Source: Candidatus Marinacidobacterales bacterium
Lineage (GTDB): Bacteria > Acidobacteriota > Vicinamibacteria > Marinacidobacterales > DATDRI01
Assembly: GCA_965226495.1 (NCBI GenBank)
Contig: OZ245365.1
Location: 1,120,001 to 1,184,000 of the forward strand
Direction of reading: 5' to 3'
DNA length: 64,000 bases
Shown: piece by piece, positions 28 to 16,083 of the stretch
How positions within the stretch are numbered: the first letter of the stretch is position 1
Layout of the letters: the number at the start of each line of letters is the position of its first letter
Position numbers and translations under genes: made by a program
Notes under the pieces: generated by a model
What the model was told of the DNA's origin: nothing
The model's input: only the letters and a program-made list of their open reading frames with translations
The model's database searches: none

Positions 28-183
28 AGTGGACGGTAATAATGAAATCGATACTGGACTTCATCGCCGCTATCCACGCGCCCCCCTCACCCGCCCGCCG
101 AAGGCGGGCGACCTCTCCCCCGGAGTCGGGGGAGAGGTAATAGAGGTGGTACCAACTTCGTTGGCACGGCCTATTAGCGGCGG
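28..183. repeat. ~155-bp palindromic intergenic repeat (family A), copy 1; REP/MITE-like
   Basis: Its reverse complement aligns nearly end to end with 22612-22767. Contains a CCCCTCACCC...CCTCTCCCCC/GGGGGAGAGG stem and GAA/TTC-loop hairpins (cgcc-GAA-ggcg; ccaac-TTC-gttgg). Confidence 0.9.
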
Positions 184-782
184 TTTCGATAGAGCTTCTC
201 GTCCACGGCGCTGGTCATCTTGTCCACGTCGAGATTCCCCAAGAATTCACTAATACGCTCGGCCTCGCGTCGCGGATTCGCCACGACGTCCTTGTAGTTC
301 ACTTCCAGCAGCTCGAAACAAGGACGATGTTTCATCAGGTAGTTCACTTTCCAGAGATGATTCTTGTAGACCTCTAACATCTCCTCGTCCGAGGTTTCGG
401 AAGCCTCAGCCCGATTCTTCAGCATTTTCGTTTGGGAGGCCAGAACCTCGTCCAGGTTACGGCGCATGAACACCACCTTGTAGTTGTTCGTCTCCGGGAG
501 ATCTTTTAACAAGAAAGAGATGATCTTGATCGTCTTTCCCCGGAACTCCTTGAGGTAGGACTTGTCCGGCTCTTTCTCCAGCTCCTTGACCCGTTCGTAC
601 TCGTAATACCCTTTGGGGTTGTCCTCGCCGGCCTTTCGGATTCCGTCGGTGGCGATGCTGAGCCCGGCGGCCTCCAGCATCTGCATGGTCATGGACGTCC
701 CGGAGCGGGGGAGGCCCGAGACGACAATCAGCGGCTCACCGAACCGGATTCTTCTATAAGTCCTGACTAAAGTGGATGTCAT
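174..782 (-). CDS. Sulfotransferase family protein (P-loop, PAPS-binding)
   Basis: 5'-PSB loop VVSGLPRSGTS, NPKGYYE, and a 3'-PB-like FMRRNLDEVLASQ; YKDVVANP...ISEFLG. Confidence 0.85.
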   Translation of the reverse strand: MTSTLVRTYRRIRFGEPLIVVSGLPRSGTSMTMQMLEAAGLSIATDGIRKAGEDNPKGYYEYERVKELEKEPDKSYLKEFRGKTIKIISFLLKDLPETNNYKVVFMRRNLDEVLASQTKMLKNRAEASETSDEEMLEVYKNHLWKVNYLMKHRPCFELLEVNYKDVVANPRREAERISEFLGNLDVDKMTSAVDEKLYRNRR

Positions 783-983: not shown

Positions 984-3131
984 ATGCGATCTAGTTCGAT
1001 GGGGAAGAGGGTTTCGAGGGCCGCCCCAGTGGTGATTTTCCTGGCGGCCATTCTTGGCTCGGCGGAGCCGGCCTTCGCCTACATCGGCCCGGGCGCTGGC
1101 TTCGCGCTCCTATCCTCTTTCCTTGTTCTCTTTACCACCATTATCCTCGCGATTTTTTCCCTGCTCATTCTTCCTTTCCGTGCGCTCTTCCGGCTCATCT
1201 TGCGCAAGACGCGGCCGAAGCCGTGGATCAAACGTATGATCGTTGTGGGATTCGACGGGCAAGATCCTAAGATCACCGAGCGGCTCTTGAAGAAGGGAAA
1301 GCTTCCGAACTTCAAGCGCCTGGCCGAGATGGGAAGTTATAGCCGCCTCCGTACCACCTTTCCTTCGATCTCGCCGGTGGCCTGGTCTTCCTTCAGTACC
1401 GGCACCAATCCGGCGCGCCACAACATCTATGATTTTCTTGACCGTGATCTCCGGACGTATTTGCCGGTACTTTCTTCGACACACATCGGCGGGCTCGAGA
1501 AGTTCCTGAAGATCGGACGTTATCGGGTTCCCCTGCGCAAGCCGGAAGTCCGGCTGCTCCGCAAGTCCAAACCCTTCTGGTCGATCCTGGGCGAGTACAA
1601 CATCTGGAGCTCGATCATTCGGGTTCCGATTACCTTTCCCCCCGATCACTTTTACGGAGCGCAACTCAGTGCGATGTGTGTGCCGGACCTCTTGGGCACG
1701 CAAGGAACGTTTCAACTTTTCACGACTCGGCCCGCCACCGAAAAATTCAAGGAAGGTGGCATTCGGATATCTCTCACGCCAAACGGGGACCGATTCGAGA
1801 CCAAGTTCGAGGGGCCCGAGAATCTGTTCAGGGAAGACAACGCGAAGCTCCAGGTTCCGTTTACGATTGCTCTGGATCGAGCCGCAAATCGGGTGCGGGT
1901 TTCGATTGGCAGTGACGAGGTGGAGCTTCAGAAGGGGCATTTGAGCGACTGGGTCACGCTGACCTTCAAGGCCGCTCCGGGGATCAAGGTCTCGGGCATT
2001 TGCCGCATGATGGTGACCGAGATGGAGGAGTATTTTTCGCTCTACGTGACTCCCATCAACATCGATCCCGAAAAACCCGCCATGCCGATTTCCCACCCAT
2101 CGTACTACTCGACTTATCTTGCCAAGAAGATCGGTCCCTACTCAACGCTTGGGCTCGCGGAGGACACCTGGGCTCTCAATGAAGGCGTGACCGATGATGG
2201 CACGTTCCTCCAGCAGGCTTATGACATCGATGGTGAGCGCCAGGAGATGTTTTTCGCTGCGATGGATCGGCTTCGTCGTGGGAGCCTGGTCTGCGTCTTC
2301 GACGCGACGGATCGTATCCAGCACATGTTCTGGCACTATACCGAGGACGGACATCCCGCCACCCAAAATGGAAAAGCGGATCTAGTGGGCAAGTACCGCG
2401 ACACAATCGATGAGATCTATATCCATAACGACAAGCTGGTGGGCAAGGTGCTCGATCAACTCGAGGACGGAGACGTGCTCTTCGTGATCTCGGACCACGG
2501 CTTCAGTTCTTTCCGCCGAGGCGTGAACCTGAATGCCTGGCTACAGGCCAACGGCTATTTGACACTCAAAGACGGTGCCGACGGGTCAGCGGAGTGGCTG
2601 CGTGACGTCGATTGGTCGAAAACGAAAGCATACTGCCTCGGTCTCACTGGAATGTTTCTCAATGTGAAGAACCGAGAGGGACAGGGGATCGTCGAGCAAG
2701 GAGCGGAGGCGGAGGTGTTGAAGGCGGAGCTCATCTCCAAGCTCAACGGACTGAAGGACGACGAAAAGGGTGCGGTGGGAATCAATGAAGTCTTCGATAC
2801 CGCCAACGTATACGGCGGTCCTTATATCGGAAATGCCCCGGACCTGATCATCGGTTACAACGGCGGCTACCGAATTTCCTGGGACTGCGCCACCGGCATG
2901 GTCTCCGGACCTGTTTTCGAGGACAACACAAAAGCGTGGAGCGGCGATCACTGCATCGATCCACGGTTGGTCCCCGGCGTGCTGTTTTGCAATCGCGAGA
3001 TCGATTCCGAAGATCCGGCCCTCATCGATATCGCGCCGAGTGCGCTCCGGATGTTCGGTCTCGAGCCACCGAAACATATGGATGGCAAATCCTTGTTTAC
3101 CAAGGAAACGTTTCAAGGCGCGGGGAGCTGA
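984..3131 (+). CDS. Alkaline phosphatase superfamily (type I phosphodiesterase/NPP-like) protein with signal peptide, AYIGPGAG motif and TM anchor
   Basis: VVGFDGQD, TTFPSISPVAWSSFSTG (Ser nucleophile position), DRIQHMFW, VISDHGF, WSGDH. ATG 984 is preceded by GAAAGGAAG. Confidence 0.85.
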   Translation: MRSSSMGKRVSRAAPVVIFLAAILGSAEPAFAYIGPGAGFALLSSFLVLFTTIILAIFSLLILPFRALFRLILRKTRPKPWIKRMIVVGFDGQDPKITERLLKKGKLPNFKRLAEMGSYSRLRTTFPSISPVAWSSFSTGTNPARHNIYDFLDRDLRTYLPVLSSTHIGGLEKFLKIGRYRVPLRKPEVRLLRKSKPFWSILGEYNIWSSIIRVPITFPPDHFYGAQLSAMCVPDLLGTQGTFQLFTTRPATEKFKEGGIRISLTPNGDRFETKFEGPENLFREDNAKLQVPFTIALDRAANRVRVSIGSDEVELQKGHLSDWVTLTFKAAPGIKVSGICRMMVTEMEEYFSLYVTPINIDPEKPAMPISHPSYYSTYLAKKIGPYSTLGLAEDTWALNEGVTDDGTFLQQAYDIDGERQEMFFAAMDRLRRGSLVCVFDATDRIQHMFWHYTEDGHPATQNGKADLVGKYRDTIDEIYIHNDKLVGKVLDQLEDGDVLFVISDHGFSSFRRGVNLNAWLQANGYLTLKDGADGSAEWLRDVDWSKTKAYCLGLTGMFLNVKNREGQGIVEQGAEAEVLKAELISKLNGLKDDEKGAVGINEVFDTANVYGGPYIGNAPDLIIGYNGGYRISWDCATGMVSGPVFEDNTKAWSGDHCIDPRLVPGVLFCNREIDSEDPALIDIAPSALRMFGLEPPKHMDGKSLFTKETFQGAGS

Positions 3132-3133
3132 CG

Positions 3134-5122
3134 ATGGGCCCAACGCGAGCCATCGGCCTGGCTTTGGTGCTCGGTGTAAGCCTGGTAGGAGTCTCCTGCG
3201 GGAGCGACAAGACCAGTGAGCCGACCGGACCGCGGGTCATCATTCTGGGGTTCGACGGCATGGACCATGGGCTCGCCGCCAAGTTCATGTCGGAGGGAAA
3301 GCTCCCGAACCTCTCGCGCGTAGCCGAGCAGGGACATTTCTCTCCGCTAGCGACTTCCGTGCCACCGCAGAGCCCAGTGGCGTGGTCCAACTTCATCACC
3401 GGCATGGACTCGGGTGGCCACGGTATCTTCGATTTCGTACATCGGGATCCGGAAACGATGTTCCCCTTCCTATCGTCGGCCGAGACCCATGCCGGAGGGA
3501 CAACGATCAAGGTCGGGAAATGGCAGATCCCGCTTTCTGGTGGCTCCGTCGAGCTGCTGCGTCGAGGGAAGGCCTTCTGGGAGGTGCTCGAGGAAAACGG
3601 CGTGGAGACGACGATCATCCGGATGCCGGCGAACTACCCCCCGTCGGGGACCGCCACTCGTGAGCTGAGCGGCATGGGAACCGTCGACATCATCGGCTCG
3701 TACGGGACGTTTTCGTTCTATACCTCGGAGCTCTTCGCCTTCGCCGGTGAAGACATTTCCGGTGGGAAGGTCTACGAAGTCGATGTTTTCGACAGCGTCG
3801 TGGAGGCCGAACTCTACGGGCCCGACAATCCTTTTCTCGTGGAGCCGAAAAAAGTCACCTCGCCGTTTACCGCGTATCTCGATCCCGAAGAGTCGCTTGC
3901 CAAGATCGTCGTCGACACCGAAGAAGTCGTTCTCGCGGTAGGAGAGTGGAGCGACTGGGTGCCCATAGAATTCGATCTCATTCCGACTCAGAGTTTGCCC
4001 GGAATGGCCCGTTTCTATCTCAAACAGATAGAGCCCGACTTCGAGCTCTACGTCACTCCGATCAATCTCGATCCCTATGAGCCGGCGCAGCCCATCTCGA
4101 CACCCGCTTCTTATGCCGCGGAGGTGGCCGAAGCATCTGGTCGCTTCTACACCCAAGGAATGCCGGAGGACACCGCCGCCCTCATGGAGGACGTGTTCAC
4201 GCCCGAAGAGTTTCTAACTCAGTCCAAGATAGCGGGAGAAGAAAACGTCGAGCAGTACAAATGGGTGCTCGACCAATTCACGAACGGCCTCCTTTTCTAC
4301 TACTTCGGCAACGTGGATCAAATCAGTCACATGATGTGGCGGGGTCGAGACCCGGGACACCCGGCCTACGATGCGGATCAAGACGCCGGTTTTGCCGGCC
4401 TCATCGACGAGCTCTATCAGGGATTGGACCGAATTGTGGGCTATACGCTCGACAGAATGAACGAAGACGACCTGCTAGTCGTGATGTCGGACCATGGATT
4501 CACTTCGTGGCGGCGGTCCTTTCACTTGAACGCCTGGCTTCACCAGAATGGATTCCTCGCCGTACGGGATCCGAATATGGAAGACGACCCCGGGATTTTC
4601 GCCAACGTGGATTGGACGGGGACGCAGGCCTACGCGGTCGGCATCAATTCGTTGTATATCAATCTCCGCGGGCGTGAAAAGTGGGGAATCGTGAACCCTG
4701 TCGAGAGAGAAGCGATTATGGACGCGATCGCCGAGAAGCTTCTGGCGACCATTGATCCCGAGACCGGTGAGCAAGCCGTGACCAAAGTCTACAAACGAGA
4801 AGAGTTCTACAAGGACCGCGGCGAGCTCGAGATCGGTCCCGATTTAGTCATCGGTTACACCAAAGGAACCCGAGGCTCCAACGAGTCGGCATTGGGCGCG
4901 GTCGGCAAAGAGGTGTTTAGCGACAACACCAGCATTTGGAGCGGCGACCACGCTATGGACCACGAAGCGGTTCCCGGCGTTCTATTCGCGAGTCGTCCTC
5001 TAAAGAGAGATGCCACTCGATTACAAGACCTGGCAGCCGCAGTCCTAGCGGAATTCGGCATCGAGGGAGAGTTTCCCTCGCGAGTTGGCGAAGACGTGGA
5101 GGCCGGTAAGGGAGGAAGTTGA
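3134..5122 (+). CDS. Alkaline phosphatase superfamily (NPP-like) probable lipoprotein; paralog of the upstream gene
   Basis: N-terminus MGPTRAIGLALVLGVSLVGVS-C is lipobox-like; ILGFDGMD, PPQSPVAWSNFITG, DQISHMMW, MSDHGF, WSGDH. Confidence 0.85.
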   Translation: MGPTRAIGLALVLGVSLVGVSCGSDKTSEPTGPRVIILGFDGMDHGLAAKFMSEGKLPNLSRVAEQGHFSPLATSVPPQSPVAWSNFITGMDSGGHGIFDFVHRDPETMFPFLSSAETHAGGTTIKVGKWQIPLSGGSVELLRRGKAFWEVLEENGVETTIIRMPANYPPSGTATRELSGMGTVDIIGSYGTFSFYTSELFAFAGEDISGGKVYEVDVFDSVVEAELYGPDNPFLVEPKKVTSPFTAYLDPEESLAKIVVDTEEVVLAVGEWSDWVPIEFDLIPTQSLPGMARFYLKQIEPDFELYVTPINLDPYEPAQPISTPASYAAEVAEASGRFYTQGMPEDTAALMEDVFTPEEFLTQSKIAGEENVEQYKWVLDQFTNGLLFYYFGNVDQISHMMWRGRDPGHPAYDADQDAGFAGLIDELYQGLDRIVGYTLDRMNEDDLLVVMSDHGFTSWRRSFHLNAWLHQNGFLAVRDPNMEDDPGIFANVDWTGTQAYAVGINSLYINLRGREKWGIVNPVEREAIMDAIAEKLLATIDPETGEQAVTKVYKREEFYKDRGELEIGPDLVIGYTKGTRGSNESALGAVGKEVFSDNTSIWSGDHAMDHEAVPGVLFASRPLKRDATRLQDLAAAVLAEFGIEGEFPSRVGEDVEAGKGGS

Positions 5123-5316
5123 TGTTTGGGTCGACGAAAGTGAAGTTGGATACAGATTTGGTGGCCAAGGTCAAGAAGTATTCGGACATCGCCGGATACT
5201 CCTCGCCCGAGGAGTTCATCACCCATGCTCTCGAAAAAGAGCTGGCCAAGCTCGAGGACGCTGGCTCCGAAGAGGAGATCCGTAAAAGACTTCAGGGGTT
5301 GGGTTACATCTCCTAG
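5122..5316 (+). CDS. Small ribbon-helix-helix-like protein with C-terminal EEIRKRLQGLGY motif
   Basis: TGATG stop/start overlap with the upstream gene and a GGAGGA RBS. Strand-helix-helix pattern KVKLDTDLVAKVKK..GYSSPEEFITHALEKEL. Confidence 0.8.
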   Translation: MFGSTKVKLDTDLVAKVKKYSDIAGYSSPEEFITHALEKELAKLEDAGSEEEIRKRLQGLGYIS

Positions 5317-5334: not shown

Positions 5335-6183
5335 ATGTCGTACATCAACGCTATATTGAGGCCTGTCTTCGAGCTTCTTCTTTCGCCCTTTAGCGGGCTT
5401 CCTGCCATCGTGGGGCTGGCGGTGGTGTCGCTGATCACGGCCATCGGGATGCTCCTAGTCTTCAAGAAGACTTCGAACCAGGATGCCATTGCGGCTGTGA
5501 AGCGGCGCATTCACGCCAACCTTTTCGAGATCCGCCTCTTTAACGACGATCTACGAGCCATACTGCGTTCGCAAACCGAGATCCTCCGTCACAACCTGAC
5601 CTATCTTCGCCTGTCCGCGGTTCCCATGTTGTGGACCTTGCCGCCATTGATCTTGATCATCGCTCAACTTCAATTTCACTACGGCTACGCTGGACTCGAT
5701 CCCACTAATCCGGTTCTCCTCAAAGTCGAGCTCCAAGACAGCGGGAACAACGCTTCGTGGGAAGAAGCGCCCCGGCCGGAGCTCACCCTGGCCGCTCCCT
5801 CCGGTATACGGATCGAGACACCTGGTCTGTGGATTCCTTCGCTTCGGGAAATGGATTGGCGAATAGTCGGTGAAGGGAGCGGGGACTACGTAGTCGAAGT
5901 GAAACTCGATGGTCAGTCTCACTCGAAAACGGTGCGAGTCTCGAACGACGTCGTGCTTCGATCGCCCTCGCGTTTGGAAAAGGGCTTCTTGAACCAACTC
6001 CTTTTTCCGGCCGAGCCCCCCCTACTGGCGGACAGTCCCATCAAATCGATCACCGTGAACTACCCGGAGGCGGCGGTGAATACTTTCGTTTTCGGATGGT
6101 CACTGCACTGGATGATCATCTACTTCGTGCTAGCCATCGCCTTCGCATTCGCCCTCAGGAACACGTTCAAAGTCCAGATGTAA
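5335..6183 (+). CDS. Membrane protein resembling DUF106/EMC3/TMCO1 (Oxa1 superfamily) with an inserted soluble beta domain
   Basis: Amphipathic N-helix, TM1 (IVGLAVVSLITAIGMLLVF), charged coiled-coil hairpin, TM2 (PMLWTLPPLILIIAQL), ~135-aa loop, TM3 (WMIIYFVLAIAFAFALR). Confidence 0.6.
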   Translation: MSYINAILRPVFELLLSPFSGLPAIVGLAVVSLITAIGMLLVFKKTSNQDAIAAVKRRIHANLFEIRLFNDDLRAILRSQTEILRHNLTYLRLSAVPMLWTLPPLILIIAQLQFHYGYAGLDPTNPVLLKVELQDSGNNASWEEAPRPELTLAAPSGIRIETPGLWIPSLREMDWRIVGEGSGDYVVEVKLDGQSHSKTVRVSNDVVLRSPSRLEKGFLNQLLFPAEPPLLADSPIKSITVNYPEAAVNTFVFGWSLHWMIIYFVLAIAFAFALRNTFKVQM

Positions 6184-6258
6184 CGGGTTTGCGGGTACGG
6201 GTCTTCGGGCGCATAATGTCTCTAAATCAGTAAAACGTGCGCTAGGAGGAGTTTGGCG

Positions 6259-7002
6259 ATGAGCCAGAAACTAAATGGGCTTGTCCTCGCTGCTTTTTTG
6301 ACGACCGGCCTCATCACCGGTGCGGTCGCGGTGGCCAAGGATAAGCCTCCCGTGGCGACAGGCGAGTTTCAGTTCCTGCTGGTGGGAAAACGTATCGGCG
6401 AGGAGCGGTTTCGGGTCTTCAAGGATAAGAAGGACTATCGCATCGAGTCCACCACGACCTTCTATTGGCCGAAGCCGAGCGCTCAACATTACGAGTGGAA
6501 GCTGGATCGATCTCTTCAGCCGGACAAGCTGGACCACGATCTAAGAGAAGGTGGCAAGGTGATCACCGTCGAGCTGAGGAAAAAAGGCAAGAACTGGCGG
6601 AGCGAGGTCAAAGGAAAAAACGTCAAGAAGGTCAAGGAAGACATGGGCCTGAGGCAGTCTGCGGAGATCGATTTCGGATCACCTTTGTTCCAGTGGATTA
6701 CTTTTCGACACCTCAAGCTTGCAGAAGGGGAAAAGAAAGACGTTGAAGTGATCGTGCTCGAAGCGCCGAAGCCGAAGGTGGCACGCATCGAGCGAACCTA
6801 CACCCGGCTACCGGACGAAGGGGTTCAAGCCGATGTGCAAGGCGAGGTTGTGGCCTCCATTTATGATGTGACCCAATCGGAATCCAGTTACCGGCTTTGG
6901 TTGGATCCAAGCGGCTTCCCTATCCGCACCGAGCGAGAAACACCCGACGGTCTGCTCGAGATTCGACTGGTCCGTTTCGATAAGCACCCGCGGGCCTGGT
7001 GA
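6259..7002 (+). CDS. Exported hypothetical beta-rich protein (DUF3108/DUF6134-like)
   Basis: Signal peptide ending AVA-VA; GKRIGEERF and LWLDPSGFPIR patterns; AGGAGGA RBS. Confidence 0.55.
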   Translation: MSQKLNGLVLAAFLTTGLITGAVAVAKDKPPVATGEFQFLLVGKRIGEERFRVFKDKKDYRIESTTTFYWPKPSAQHYEWKLDRSLQPDKLDHDLREGGKVITVELRKKGKNWRSEVKGKNVKKVKEDMGLRQSAEIDFGSPLFQWITFRHLKLAEGEKKDVEVIVLEAPKPKVARIERTYTRLPDEGVQADVQGEVVASIYDVTQSESSYRLWLDPSGFPIRTERETPDGLLEIRLVRFDKHPRAW

Positions 7003-7021: not shown

Positions 7022-8086
7022 TCACCCGGTCGAGGCCAGTTGGCAGCCTGAGTAGACTGGCCCTGGCTCGCGTGCACGGCTGTCGGAGCGCCGGAATCGC
7101 CCCATCACTTCCTTTCCGTACGTGCGTTCAGCCAGATATTGGTTGTGCGCTGGACACATCATTTGAACGTTGTCAGGGCTGTGGTCGCCGCCCAGGGCAA
7201 ATGCCTCGTCGTGGTGAAACTGCAGCGCATTGCGACTCCGGCACCGTCTGCCGCGTCCGTCCACAAAGGTACAACGGTTCCCGTCGCGCTCGCTGACCGT
7301 GCGCCGCACTGCGGCCGGGATGTAACGTGACGACGGCGATGTGTCGGTCTCTTCGACGCTCTTCCTAGGGGCTGTCGTCTTGCCGAAGCGCTTCGCCTCG
7401 AGTCTTTCGAGCTTCTCGCTCACGGCTTCTTCGATGATCGCAGCCAGGTCGCCGTCTGGAACCGATGAACGCATGAGCGCCTGGAGCCGCTCTAACTTGG
7501 CGTGGAACTCGGCGTTGGCCGTGAACTGGACCTTGTAACGGGCAGGCGCCAGGGGCTCGACCAAAGCGGGCTTGGTCTTCGCAGGAGCGGGTAACTCGAT
7601 CGCAACTTGGTCCGGACCGAGTTGCGAGGCTGCTTTCTTCGGTCGCTGGGGTAGCTTTCGCATCACGGTTGGAACATCCGGCTTCGGGGTGATTTCGATC
7701 ACCAACTCCTCGATCTCTCGTTTGGATCTATGCGCCGCACGAGCCAGAAGCGTTTCTCGATTGGCTTCGGTCAGGTGCAGAGCGAGCTTGGCGATGCCGC
7801 TTAAGTGAAGCCGGCCGTCACCCAGCATCGCGAGCAGCATCGGATGCTTCCGAGACGCACGACCCACTGCGATGCGCAAATAGGCCTCGTGCTCCGACAA
7901 GTGCAACTCCTCCGTGCAGTAGGCAAACATAGAGGAGAATGCCCCTCTCGCATAGAGCCGCCGCTCGTCTACCTCGGCAATATGTGCGACAAGCTCTGAC
8001 TCGATGCGTCGTGAGTTCTGCACCAGCCCTGTTAAGCGGCGGAGTAGCTCATCATCCGAAATTGATTTTAGTAACTTGCTAGACAT
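7022..8086 (-). CDS. DUF222-like domain plus C-terminal HNH endonuclease
   Basis: N-terminal LVAHIAEVDERRLY...FSSMFAYC..L.LSE.EAY.RI; C-terminal RDGNRCTF..RC....LQFHHDEAFALGG.HSPDNVQMMCPAHN. Confidence 0.85.
   Translation of the reverse strand: MSSKLLKSISDDELLRRLTGLVQNSRRIESELVAHIAEVDERRLYARGAFSSMFAYCTEELHLSEHEAYLRIAVGRASRKHPMLLAMLGDGRLHLSGIAKLALHLTEANRETLLARAAHRSKREIEELVIEITPKPDVPTVMRKLPQRPKKAASQLGPDQVAIELPAPAKTKPALVEPLAPARYKVQFTANAEFHAKLERLQALMRSSVPDGDLAAIIEEAVSEKLERLEAKRFGKTTAPRKSVEETDTSPSSRYIPAAVRRTVSERDGNRCTFVDGRGRRCRSRNALQFHHDEAFALGGDHSPDNVQMMCPAHNQYLAERTYGKEVMGRFRRSDSRAREPGPVYSGCQLASTG
7600..7627. repeat. 28-bp near-perfect palindrome inside the HNH gene; related copy at 8373-8392
   Basis: TCGCAACTTGGTCC-GGACCGAGTTGCGA has one mismatch between arms. 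7605-7624 matches 8373-8392 at 18/20. Confidence 0.8.
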
Positions 8087-12778: not shown

Positions 12779-13817
12779 AGTTGGGTTTTGCCGAACAATC
12801 TTTCCTTCAACGGTTTCTTACTTGGTTTCTTTCTCGTTGGCGAAGTAATCCTCGCCGGGTGCGGATCGCAAGATGCTCACATCGCATATGACCTTGTCGA
12901 GCATCTCCCAAGCGCCGTTGTCATTAGAGAGAGCCCTCTTCTGGACTTCGGCTCAGGCTCGAGTCGGGCTCTCCTTTACGCGGGCTGGTCCCGGGATGAG
13001 GTCGCCGCCGACGGAACGACGTTTGTTTGGGGGGTAGGGGAGGGGTCGTCTCTAAACTTTTTTCTGGCCGAGCCACGCGACCTTGCTCTGACTTTCCGTT
13101 GTTGGCCCTTTTCGTATCCGGGCGCACCTTCCCAGACACTGACTTTGTGGATCAATGGCCACGATGTCGGCGGTCTGGAGCTCGGAGCGACGGCCTTGGA
13201 GTATAGGATCGAAGTCCACGCGGCAGACCTCATTTCTGGCACCAACCAGCTCGAGATTGCGTACGGCCATCACCGCTCTCCGAGCGAAGTGCTTCCTGGG
13301 GCCACTGACGATCGAGGTCTTGCAGTTGGTTGGGATTGGCTTCGCATTGGAGAAGCGGCTCCCGCGCGCGCGCCGTTCGCCAGAGGCGATGGGCGAATCG
13401 CATCGGTGATGCTTCCAAACCATCTGCGACTCGAGTACCAATTGGATGTCCCCGCCGAAAGCTCGTTGGTTATCGAAAGCGTGGGGTTTTGGGGCTCCAA
13501 CGAGGAAGCGGAAACGACCAACCTTCAGGTCACCGTTCAAACAATGAACGCGCGGACGGAGGAGCACTTCGAAATTCCCGGGCATGTGGACCTTCCGATA
13601 TCGGTAGCATCGTCGCAGCGCCTGGTCTTGTCCTTTCAGACCCGCGGAGAGCCGGGAGCACCCGGAGCCGATGCCGGCATTCGTCTCCTGCGGCCGACCA
13701 TCCGTTCTGCGTCGTGGCCGGAGTCGAGTGAAACCCCTCTCCGCCCGTCCGGGCGGCCGAACATTCTGCTTTATGTAATCGATACCCTGCGTGCGGACCA
13801 TTTGGGTTGTTACGGGT

Positions 13818-14895
13818 CGCGAATTCATAAAGTAAGTGCAACACAGCTCCCGGATGAGGTGACCTGGAATGTGCCACGATTCCTCAAACAACCAAGAATG
13901 GGGACTCGCTAATGACTTATTACCAGATCACCTCGGAAGAACGCTACACCATCGCGGCGCTGCGACGGGAGGGATTTTGCTCGGCCGAGATCGCGCGGCG
14001 CCTGGGGCGCCACCGGAGCACCATCTCGAGAGAGGTCAGGAGGAACAGCTCACCTAGTGATGGATGCTACCGGCCGAGCAAGGCCATCGAGAGAACGAAC
14101 GGACGACGCTCGCGGTCTCGCCGGAACCAGTACTTCACAAAGGCCGACTTTGCCCTGGTGGAGAAGAAGCTTAAGGCCGACTGGAGCCCAGAGCAGATCT
14201 CCGGCCACCTGCGCCTTCACGGCGAGCTCTCGATCAGCCACGAGACGATCTACACCCACGTTTGGCGGGACAAGGAGGCCGGAGGACATCTATACCGCCA
14301 CCTTCGATGCTCGCCCAAACTTAGACGCAAGCGCCACAACAGCTACGACAGCCGAGGCCGCCTGGCCGGGAAGCGTCACATCTCCGAGCGGCCGTCTTGT
14401 ATCGACAAGCGCCGTGCCGTTGGCCACTGGGAGATTGACACCGTGGTAGGAAAAGACGCGCCGGACTGCGTCACCACGCTCGTGGAACGAAAGACGGGCT
14501 ATGCGCTGATCGGCAAACTGTCCGACCGCAGCATGTTCGGCACTAGCCAGCGAACGAAGATGTTGCTCCGGCGGGTGCCGGATCAGGTCAAGACCATCAC
14601 CGCGGACAATGGCACGGAGTTCCACGACTACGAATCCGTCGAGGAAGCGACCGGCGTCAAGTTCTACTTTGCAACTCCCTATCACTCATGGGAGAGAGGC
14701 AGCAACGAGAACTTCAATGGATTGCTACGACAATACCTGCCGAAGCGCACCAGCCAAGCAGCGCTCACGCAACGCCACTGCGATGGTATCGCAAAGAAGC
14801 TCAACACACGGCCCCGCAAGAGGCTCGGTTACCGCACACCGGAGGAACGTTTCCATGGGAACTAACGAATGGTGCGCTTCAAACTTGAAGTCACA
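13818..14895 (+). mobile_element. IS30 family insertion sequence (1078 bp), 3-bp target duplication GGT
   Basis: Imperfect 27-bp terminal IRs at 13818-13844 (CGCGAATTCATAAAGTAAGTGCAACAC) and 14869-14895 (ATGGTGCGCTTCAAACTTGAAGTCACA). GGT flanks at 13815-13817 and 14896-14898. Confidence 0.92.
13912..14865 (+). CDS. IS30 family DDE transposase
   Basis: HTH IARRLGRHRSTISREVRRN, WSPEQISG, GHWEIDTV, TITADNGTEF, PYHSWERGSNENFNGLLRQYLPK, LNTRPRKRLGYRTP. Confidence 0.97.
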   Translation: MTYYQITSEERYTIAALRREGFCSAEIARRLGRHRSTISREVRRNSSPSDGCYRPSKAIERTNGRRSRSRRNQYFTKADFALVEKKLKADWSPEQISGHLRLHGELSISHETIYTHVWRDKEAGGHLYRHLRCSPKLRRKRHNSYDSRGRLAGKRHISERPSCIDKRRAVGHWEIDTVVGKDAPDCVTTLVERKTGYALIGKLSDRSMFGTSQRTKMLLRRVPDQVKTITADNGTEFHDYESVEEATGVKFYFATPYHSWERGSNENFNGLLRQYLPKRTSQAALTQRHCDGIAKKLNTRPRKRLGYRTPEERFHGN

Positions 14896-16083
14896 GGTCT
14901 TCGAGTCCGACGCCGCGGATCGATGCCTTCGCGGGGCAGGCGACGCTCTTCGAGACGGCGTATGCGCAATCGTCTTGGACCAAGTCATCGGTGGCTTCGA
15001 TCATGTCGGGGCTTCTGCCGCGCGCGCACGCCGCCAACCGGCGCGAGGATGCCTTGCCTCCTGGAATCGACACGCTGGCTGAGCGGCTGGATCGATCGGG
15101 ATACGCCAGAGCCGGTTTCGTTACCAACCCGAACCTCGCGTCGGCCTTTGGTTTCGATCAAGGGTTCGAGACATACGAGCTTCTTGTCGAGGAAGACCCA
15201 CAGCGAGGCTACGTCCGTTCGGATGCACTTAACCGCCGCGCCATCGAATGGCTCGAGAACCGCAGCACGACCGAGCCATTCTTCCTCTATATGCATTCGA
15301 TGGATCCTCATGATCCCTATCTTTCTGGGGCTTCCCGAGCAGAGCCGGCGGACGGGATCGGCACGATGGCATTTATGACTGCTCTCGAGGATGGGCGAAT
15401 CGATTCTTCTGCAGAGATCCATACGAGGCTGATGGAACTGTATGATTCAGAGATCGCGTTCAACGATCAACACTTCGGCGAGCTGCTGGATTGGTTGAAG
15501 CGCGTCGGCCTGTACGAACCAACGCTTATTGTGCTCGTCTCCGACCACGGCGAAGAGTTCGACGACCACGGTTGGTGGCGTCATGGCAAGACGCTCTACC
15601 GGGAGCAGCTCGAGATCCCACTCATCGTGAAGTGGCCGGGAGGGCATGATGTAGGCGTTCGCCGTGAGGACGTTGCTCAGCACGTCGATTTGTTGCCGAC
15701 GTTGATGCGGCACATTGGCGGGGAGTCGACTAGCGATCTTCACGGACGAAGTCTTTGGAGCCGGCAGACCAGCCCCGCAGTGTTCAGCTACCTCAATCTG
15801 GATGGACGCGAGCTGGAAAGCGTCGTCTACCGAGACCAGAAGCTCATCCGGTATCTTTCCTTCGATCGGCCGCGGTCGCCCCTCCAGGTTTTCGATCTCG
15901 CCTCGGATGGAGCGGAGTCCCGAGACCTGGCGCCTGAGCGACCCCTTCCAGCATCCTTTCTGGCGAGGCTTCTCGCACATTCGAGAAGTTTGTCCGGGAC
16001 GCGAGTCCCGGTGCCGGCGACGATCGACGAGTCACTCGAGGAGAAACTTCGGGCGCTCGGCTATCTGCGGTAGTTCTGATGGG

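Follow-up and report, generated by a model that had tools for sequence, protein, structure and literature searches.

A predicted three-helix Oxa1-superfamily membrane protein inherited with a phosphoesterase module in Acidobacteriota

In the accessible text of the literature on the Oxa1 superfamily, the three-helix DUF106/Ylp1 type is described as archaeal or eukaryotic and YidC as the bacterial form. What a protein of the three-helix type would be doing in a bacterium, at the end of a row of enzyme genes, is the question raised by the gene for a 282-amino-acid protein at positions 5335..6183 (+ strand) of a 64,000-nucleotide stretch of DNA. This stretch, referred to here as the window, comprises positions 1,120,001 to 1,184,000 of contig OZ245365.1 (assembly GCA_965226495.1) from a Candidatus Marinacidobacterales bacterium of the phylum Acidobacteriota. 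A sequence-only reading of the window had placed the protein in the DUF106/EMC3/TMCO1 branch of the superfamily, and the computational analysis described here followed up that assignment. The gene is consistently found with genes for two phosphatase-like enzymes (PDE1 and PDE2) and a small tailed protein, an association suggestive of a membrane machine that has yet to be studied.

Sequence and fold of the 282-residue protein

The reading frame starts with ATG and, judged by sequence comparison, is a genuine gene, far beyond a chance open reading frame (ORF). A word-indexed search yielded 1946 related database proteins at E≤0.001, and an exhaustive search of 50%-identity clusters yielded 2189 at E≤0.001; of these clusters, 1403 reach E≤1e-10 and 335 reach E≤1e-30. 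The top 150 are, with few exceptions, 250–305 residues long and align from end to end. Fused long forms were absent among 7999 scored candidates of 495–2000 residues, which is weak evidence. Long ORFs that appear to cross the gene were rejected as read-through in other frames of GC-rich DNA.

A phmmer search against all PDB chains returned one significant relative, MJ0480 (Ylp1; PDB 5c8j; Pfam PF01956), the archaeal DUF106 'YidC-like' protein of Methanocaldococcus jannaschii, with residues 5–121 aligned to its residues 14–126 at E 2e-5. The match was at E 4e-12 with a profile of 36 relatives and at E 5.4e-10 with a profile of 63 sequences. The 36-relative profile also added a weak second stretch that is collinear with the first and places the third transmembrane helix (TM3; 248–275) on MJ0480 171–198. 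Five of the 36 relatives match PF01956 on their own (E≤0.01, best 4.8e-8), some database relatives bear a precomputed PF01956 domain, and many are named 'uncharacterized membrane protein (DUF106 family)' by JGI. The family profiles gave no match to TMCO1, EMC3, GET1 or YidC among PDB sequences, an NCBIfam scan gave none for the 282-residue protein, and PF02096 was not among its Pfam matches even at E≤10. Judged by these alignments, the protein is a true homologue of MJ0480/Ylp1 and of the three-helix type, so that its earlier placement in the DUF106/EMC3/TMCO1 branch is borne out. The same reading had held that bacteria typically use YidC, and this genome indeed has its own, a canonical YidC in a 595-residue frame elsewhere (C1:5693192; PF02096, 187 bits). 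The 5335–6183 gene is present as a single copy in the genome (one contig, 6.34 Mb, 94.8% complete). The 282-residue protein is an addition to the ordinary YidC and not a substitute for it.

An AlphaFold2 model built with 36 diverse relatives has a mean pLDDT of 92.4 and a pTM of 0.82, with all residues at 70 or above. It contains helices at residues 2–19, 24–46, 49–68, 73–116 and 259–274 and strands between 127 and 241, and its membrane core is made of three helices, the first two joined by a helical hairpin. The order read earlier from the translation (N-terminal helix, TM1, coiled-coil hairpin, TM2, beta insert, TM3) is reproduced, the beta-rich insert put at ∼135 residues comes to ∼139 (residues 119–257), and the motifs described can be read in the translation as VPMLWTLPPL in TM2 and HWMIIYFVLAIAFAFALR in TM3. 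The comparison of folds that had been called for was made with two programs. With VIA-align, run against 48,161 chains, the top match was the 177-residue chain 8 of 7tut, a ribosome-bound multipass translocon entry (Z 12.0, root mean square deviation (rmsd) 3.8), aligned over 138 residues that span 18–282 of the model; the next row has Z 8.3. According to the accessible text of the literature, the multipass translocon contains the Oxa1-superfamily member TMCO1. Foldseek against the PDB gave no match at E≤0.001 for the whole model, left the helical core unmatched and returned Ig-like (immunoglobulin-like) matches for the insert only. Because helical models can reach such a Z by chance, the homology was rested on the sequence evidence, with the fold match as support. 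The features of the protein, all on the + strand, are as follows.

5335..6183, +: predicted Oxa1-superfamily (Ylp1/DUF106-type) membrane protein, 282 residues (ORF; MJ0480 match; model pLDDT 92.4; fold match Z 12.0)
5338..5391, +: N-terminal helix, residues 2–19 (DSSP on the model)
5404..5472, +: TM1, residues 24–46, with conserved S32 and T35 and a T46-S47-N48-Q49 cap (model; conservation in 63 sequences)
5479..5613, +: basic coiled-coil hairpin, residues 49–93, predicted cytoplasmic (model; invariant columns; aligns with the MJ0480 coiled coil)
5614..5682, +: TM2, residues 94–116; P97 and P104 are invariant, and Q111/Q113 lie at its outer end (model; conservation)
5689..6105, +: insert between TM2 and TM3, residues 119–257, with invariant K198, E227 and Y243 (fold matches; invariant in both clades)
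6106..6159, +: TM3, residues 258–275, with invariant W259 first and R275 last (model; weak collinear match to MJ0480 171–198; conservation)

The coiled-coil hairpin is the best-conserved part of the protein (K56, R67, D71 and Y90), and K56, R67 and D71 are near-invariant in an alignment that joins the window's close clade with a distant clade of relatives 23–31% identical to it. The two clades differ in a coiled-coil motif, which reads IKAxILAIRIYRDFW in the distant clade (L084–L095) and IHAxLFEIRLFNDDL in that of the window. Residues 120–205 of the insert form an Ig-like beta-sandwich by fold matches. Foldseek returned only Ig-like or E-set matches for it, with probability up to 1.00 and E no better than 2e-3, among them a cyclomaltodextrinase N-domain, S-layer SbsC domains and filamin (rmsd 2.8 over 86 columns). 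VIA-align gave the adhesin InvE (Z 6.1) and filamin (Z 5.6, rmsd 2.5 over 74 residues). Five residues are invariant across both clades (P97, K198, E227, Y243 and W259) and three of them lie in the insert; because K198, E227 and Y243 are held in this way, the insert would be more than a passive loop.

The accessible text of Anghel et al. gives the topology of the superfamily as N-out/C-in with a cytosolic coiled coil. As read from the sequence, the present protein has 10 Lys/Arg in residues 44–93 and R275 and K279 after TM3. The superfamily topology, the basic coiled coil and the R275/K279 tail together indicate a probably cytoplasmic coiled coil and a probably periplasmic Ig-like insert. Conserved polar positions within the helices are S32 (polar in 90% of sequences), T35 (65%) and S267 (87%; Ala in the 282-residue protein itself), with polar caps at T46-S47-N48-Q49 and Q111/Q113. 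The groove of MJ0480, as described in the accessible text of Lewis and Hegde, was mapped by profile alignment, at the level of sequence only: the Ile at the end of its TM3 groove falls on F264, the Ser at +3 on S267, the Ser at +7 on A271 and the Arg at +11 on R275. With F264 and A271 among the mapped positions, the predicted groove is at best partly hydrophilic.

The module and its partner proteins

The 282-residue protein is encoded by the last of four tightly packed genes on the same strand: PDE1 ends at 3131, PDE2 occupies 3134–5122, the small gene 5122–5316, and the 282-residue gene follows from 5335. The start of the small gene is taken as the ATG at 5122; a program-made list of ORFs begins it at the TTG at 5119. 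The partners and the divergent neighbour are listed here.

984..3131, +: PDE1, alkaline-phosphatase superfamily (PF01663), predicted membrane-anchored (Pfam E 3.6e-29; N-terminal anatomy)
984–1079, +: signal-peptide-like segment of PDE1, ending A-F-A
1080..1247, +: PDE1 anchor, with YIGPGAG, one TM helix and an Arg/Lys-rich stretch (63-sequence alignment)
3134..5122, +: PDE2, alkaline-phosphatase superfamily (PF01663), with a signal peptide and a lipobox-like Cys (Pfam E 4.3e-29)
5122..5316, +: 64-residue ribbon-helix-helix (RHH) protein with an extra helix and a C-terminal GLGYIS tail (model, fold matches, adjacency)
174..782, −: sulfotransferase, 202 residues, divergent (Pfam Sulfotransfer_3 5e-14, Sulfotransfer_1 8e-11)

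The neighbourhood of the gene was compared by tblastn in 80 related loci from species-representative genomes. The small gene adjoins it in 79 of the 80, and PDE1 and PDE2 each have matches in 76, some of the PDE1 matches on truncated contigs being cross-hits from its paralogue; the anchor motif of PDE1 was located in an ORF in 62 of the 80 as well as in the window. The sulfotransferase lies within 8 kb in 60 of 80 loci and is a frequent, not an obligatory, companion. The three genes downstream of the 282-residue gene recur in only 2 or 3 of the 80. When the 12 most distant relatives (23–31% identity) were fetched, PDE2, the small gene and the 282-residue gene stood together in all 12 and PDE1 adjoined them in 9; the three genomes without an adjoining PDE1 all carry the anchor elsewhere. 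Presence and absence were then counted in 401 evenly sampled genomes of the phylum (including one flagged unpublished, G049).

282-residue gene: 120 of 401 genomes; 108 of 371 high-quality genomes; 78 of 228 genera
PDE1 anchor: 121 of 401, always exactly one match each
282-residue gene and PDE1 anchor: 117 of 401
Gene without anchor: 3 of 401 (genomes 79, 81 and 95% complete)
Anchor without gene: 4 of 401 (genomes 75, 77, 83 and 98% complete)
Neither: 277 of 401
Small protein: 123 of 401, including 120 of the 120 gene-positive genomes; two of the three extras are weak matches

The 282-residue gene is thus co-inherited with the genes for the RHH-tail protein, for PDE2 and for the PDE1 anchor. 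A single anchor match in each positive genome indicates one client and therefore not a general sorting signal.

PDE1 and PDE2 are paralogues (39% identity over 628 residues) that score 102.9 and 102.6 bits against PF01663 (cut-off 23) and have the motifs GFDG, SPVAWS, SDHGF and WSGDH in common, which would correspond to catalytic residues. No solved relative was found at E≤0.001 for PDE1 or below E 0.3 for PDE2. The two enzymes appear to differ in location. In 63 sequences, the PDE1 anchor has invariant Y1, G3, P4, G5, A6 and G7 (Y-x-GPGAG), and the invariant Tyr directly follows a hydrophobic run and a small-x-small tripeptide in 68 of the 76 anchors examined for this. One TM helix, an Arg/Lys-rich stretch and the catalytic domain follow, and by the positive-inside rule the catalytic domain would be cytoplasmic, with only ∼8 residues exported. 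Phage procoat is a textbook YidC-only substrate, and the N-terminal hairpin of PDE1 is of the same design. PDE2, in turn, carries a lipobox-like Cys signal in 40 of 63 N-termini from the close clade (by a crude pattern) and a twin-arginine-like signal (for example, MKRREFLK) in six of seven PDE2-type N-termini from distant loci. Because two different export signals are found on the same enzyme, PDE2 probably works outside the cytoplasm, in the periplasm.

The model of the small protein (pLDDT 89.8) has a strand-helix-helix fold that Foldseek matched to NikR (2hza; rmsd 0.9 over 42 residues, probability 1.00) and further to CopG, Arc, PutA and antitoxins with probabilities near 1; for a domain of so small a size the E-values stay weak, at 0.14 and above. 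Pfam gave a weak match to an RHH transcription-factor family (E 0.023). An extra helix and the tail follow the RHH domain. The protein is 65–94% identical across 79 loci, and GLGYIS is identical in all 79 sequences available (78 loci and the window); the 12 distant loci have GLGYI(S/D/E).

Genes for sulfation recur near the module. A fused ATP-sulfurylase/APS-kinase (PAPS synthase) is encoded in 28 of the 80 loci (22 strong and 6 weak matches), a CysQ-like protein of the inositol-monophosphatase family in 15 and sulfatase-domain proteins of ∼820 residues in 27. Because sulfotransferase and PAPS-synthesis genes are so often linked to it, the module is suggested to handle a sulfated or phosphodiester-linked envelope compound.

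Several further observations concern the surroundings of these genes. The fused ATP-sulfurylase/APS-kinase gene, accompanied by a CysQ-like gene, is often found immediately upstream of the sulfotransferase gene or immediately downstream of the Oxa1-like one, and polyphosphate kinase 2 genes lie beside the module in 7 of 80 loci (L007, L020 and L011 among them). The 15 kb upstream of the window (L083) contain no PAPS-synthesis, CysQ-like or sulfatase gene, and an APS-kinase domain lies ∼386 kb away in the source genome. Those 15 kb encode a DUF3604 protein, an HMPTM zinc-ribbon radical-SAM protein, an NYN/LOTUS protein, a response-regulator-oxidoreductase fusion, a cNMP-binding histidine kinase and an ankyrin-repeat protein, none of them linked to the module in relatives. 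Within the window, a sulfatase-domain gene at 12788–16073 has apparently been split by an insertion sequence: 12788–13912, which has no Pfam match, is 83% identical to residues 5–268 of an intact 657-residue sulfatase-domain protein from a close relative (L004:14315–16288), a transposase gene (HTH_38 and rve) follows at 13912–14865, and the rest of the sulfatase domain is at 14991–16073 (PF00884 profile positions 54–300).

Directly downstream of the 282-residue gene, 6253–7002 (+) encodes a secreted-looking protein of 249 residues from the 'putative glycolipid-binding' family (PF06475, E 1.3e-10); as a member of the module it was rejected, with a presence in only 3 of 80 loci. An ORF of 354 residues at 7022–8086 (−) has a weak, sub-threshold HNH endonuclease match (E 0.006), recurs in 2 of 80 loci and lies outside the module. 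PADLOC gave no defence-system match for any of five proteins. In metatranscriptome run X20, two contigs identical to the window lie inside PDE1 (1711–1976, 266 bases, and 2248–2400, 153 bases); no contig fell on the other module genes, which neither supports nor excludes transcription of the 282-residue gene. Records with the module are also labelled Gammaproteobacteria, Myxococcota, Gemmatimonadales and Bifidobacteriaceae (L055, L067, L019, L075 and L072). The tree places the rows that bear the names Pseudomonadota, Myxococcota, Gemmatimonadota and Actinomycetota among those of Acidobacteriota, and these labels may stem from mis-binning of contigs or from gene transfer. As for a spread beyond the phylum, the atlas clusters with the names Aminicenantota and Planctomycetota are no more than leads.

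Proposed role and competing explanations

We propose, as the leading explanation and at a level somewhat short of probable, that the 282-residue protein is an Oxa1-type subunit dedicated to the module, which would insert and probably hold the PDE1 hairpin, dock partners and bridge both faces of the membrane. The three-helix insertase-type core would insert the N-terminal hairpin of PDE1, composed of the signal peptide, the ∼8 exported residues (YIGPGAG) and the TM helix, and would then probably hold it. In the periplasm, PDE2 would bind to the Ig-like domain, and in the cytoplasm the coiled coil would offer a docking site to the small tailed protein or to PDE1. The resulting complex would have the paralogous phosphoesterases PDE1 and PDE2 on opposite faces of the inner membrane. 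The role suggested in the sequence-only reading, a dedicated insertase or a membrane-thinning conduit for the operon, is plausible and agrees with the constant gene partnership; that the partners are constant and that the insert has invariant residues had not been noticed in that reading. The presence of exactly one client-like anchor in each positive genome, and the resemblance of that anchor in design to YidC substrates, would be consistent with this proposal. By analogy, so would the obligate membrane partners that the archaeal and endoplasmic reticulum (ER) members of the superfamily have on TM3, according to the accessible text of Lewis and Hegde.

Alternatively, the three-helix core might have ceased to insert proteins; it might thin the membrane and, as a conduit or scramblase, pass a polar group, for instance a lipid-linked or a sulfated/phosphorylated intermediate or a lipid head group, between PDE1 and PDE2, an explanation that we regard as unlikely and yet as the closest competitor. 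The paralogous enzymes, 39% identical, are predicted on opposite faces of the membrane; besides the single PDE1 helix, the 282-residue protein is the only membrane-spanning protein of the module; the sulfotransferase (60 of 80 loci), PAPS synthase (28), CysQ-like (15) and sulfatase-domain (27) genes are linked to it; and YidC is termed an insertase and lipid scramblase in the accessible text of PMC11997395. However, the groove positions are rather hydrophobic, action of PDE1 and PDE2 on one common molecule is an assumption, and the invariant PDE1 anchor and the small protein are left unexplained. A rather smaller chance is given to a trans-membrane relay, in which the Oxa1-type core would couple the cytoplasmic and periplasmic enzymes, the GLGYIS tail would be a carrier or adaptor, its Tyr or Ser perhaps modified by the linked sulfotransferase, and a sulfo- or phospho-group would cross the inner membrane. 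If true, an envelope component would be built or remodelled by a sulfation/phosphoester pathway without a described counterpart, and bacteria would have a non-insertase use of the Oxa1 fold.

The constancy of the small protein could instead point to regulation, with an RHH transcription factor held at the membrane through the coiled coil and the GLGYIS tail and freed when the periplasmic Ig-like domain or PDE2 senses a signal. Its fold is akin to that of the DNA-binding repressors NikR, CopG, Arc and PutA, with the weak Pfam RHH match already given, and the small gene stands beside the 282-residue gene in all but one of the 80 related loci and in all 12 distant ones, and accompanies it in each of the 120 gene-positive genomes. 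Yet DNA binding is only predicted, a comparison of the regions upstream of PDE1 in 60 loci gave no non-coding word in common that resembles an operator, the words they do share falling in the sulfotransferase coding sequence, and 65–94% identity over 79 loci is above what is usual for a local regulator. We therefore consider regulation improbable. Least probable is a general second insertase, an accessory YidC-like factor serving many membrane proteins and present in the operon by accident. Homology to insertases and a basic coiled coil that, as read from the sequence, resembles that of ribosome-binding relatives would fit such a role, but the gene tracks the module and not the phylum (it is absent from 281 of the 401 sampled genomes), is never apart from the small protein and PDE2, and belongs to a genome that already has YidC.

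The proposal of a dedicated subunit that inserts and holds PDE1 has difficulties of its own. On the side of homology, EMC3_TMCO1 (PF01956) itself scores below threshold on the 282-residue protein (E 0.11; 12.8 bits, the cut-off being 27.1), and the PF01956 model run against the whole genome gave nothing at E≤1. A Z of 12 is within reach of chance for helical models, and chain 8 of 7tut is TMCO1 only presumably, by elimination; papers that mention 7TUT and the paper on the multipass translocon give no chain letters. On the side of mechanism, the groove is less polar than that of MJ0480 (F264, A271 and, in this protein, A267), the topologies of PDE1, PDE2 and the 282-residue protein derive from sequence signals and homology alone, and the contacts between the protein and its partners are putative. 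PDE1 is unlinked in 3 of 12 distant loci and PDE2 and the small protein never are, and the counts of co-occurrence overstate the support because related genomes are not independent. Ordinary YidC may also insert the PDE1 hairpin unaided, and a pure PDE1-insertase model leaves the unlinking of PDE1, the invariant periplasmic residues and the small cytoplasmic protein unexplained.

Significance and comparison with known systems

A literature search, in which subscription journals were not covered, found no paper on bacterial DUF106 and none pairing the Oxa1 superfamily with Acidobacteria, and among the papers naming DUF106 no title concerns bacteria. In the accessible text of Lewis and Hegde, only EMC3 and TMCO1 are excluded as non-archaeal members of PF01956. 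What was already known is that JGI automatic annotation labels some relatives DUF106. The present results add a Ylp1-type protein that is widespread within one phylum of bacteria, in 120 of 401 sampled genomes and in 78 of 228 genera, beside YidC and with one fixed client set. It offers a natural test case for the workings of a minimal Oxa1 core outside the role of general insertase, and it bears on the number of helices, three or five, in the ancestral insertase, a question raised in the accessible text of the literature. It also draws attention to an envelope module linked to sulfation, so far unstudied, whose enzymes are predicted on both faces of the membrane. With the PDE1 hairpin as candidate client and the partners identified as well, the idea is directly testable.

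Among known systems, MJ0480 is the nearest. Both proteins have the order TM1, coiled coil, TM2 and TM3, and both have the motifs round the Pro-rich start of TM2 and the Trp that opens TM3. In MJ0480, however, TM2 and TM3 are joined by a ∼44-residue loop (chain residues 127–170), whereas here they are separated by the ∼139-residue insert with its Ig-like domain. MJ0480 is archaeal, has more polar groove positions in TM3 and is the general factor of its cell, whereas the 282-residue protein is bacterial, coexists with YidC and is tied to a phosphoesterase module.

Like TMCO1, EMC3 and GET1, the 282-residue protein probably works with fixed partners, and its best fold match lies in the multipass translocon. 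Unlike them, it has an Ig-like domain, predicted on the non-cytosolic side, and it has no sequence match to them in the PDB. No gene for a partner of the EMC6, GET2, OPTI or Elp1 type was seen in the conserved module; the genome was not searched for one.

YidC belongs to the same superfamily and is expected to have the same orientation in the membrane. It differs in its PF02096 family and five-helix core, the 282-residue protein having three helices and no PF02096 match. Gram-negative YidC has a large periplasmic beta domain (P1), with which the beta domain of the 282-residue protein may be compared. Unlike that of YidC, the latter is, by its fold matches, an Ig-like sandwich and is sited between TM2 and TM3.

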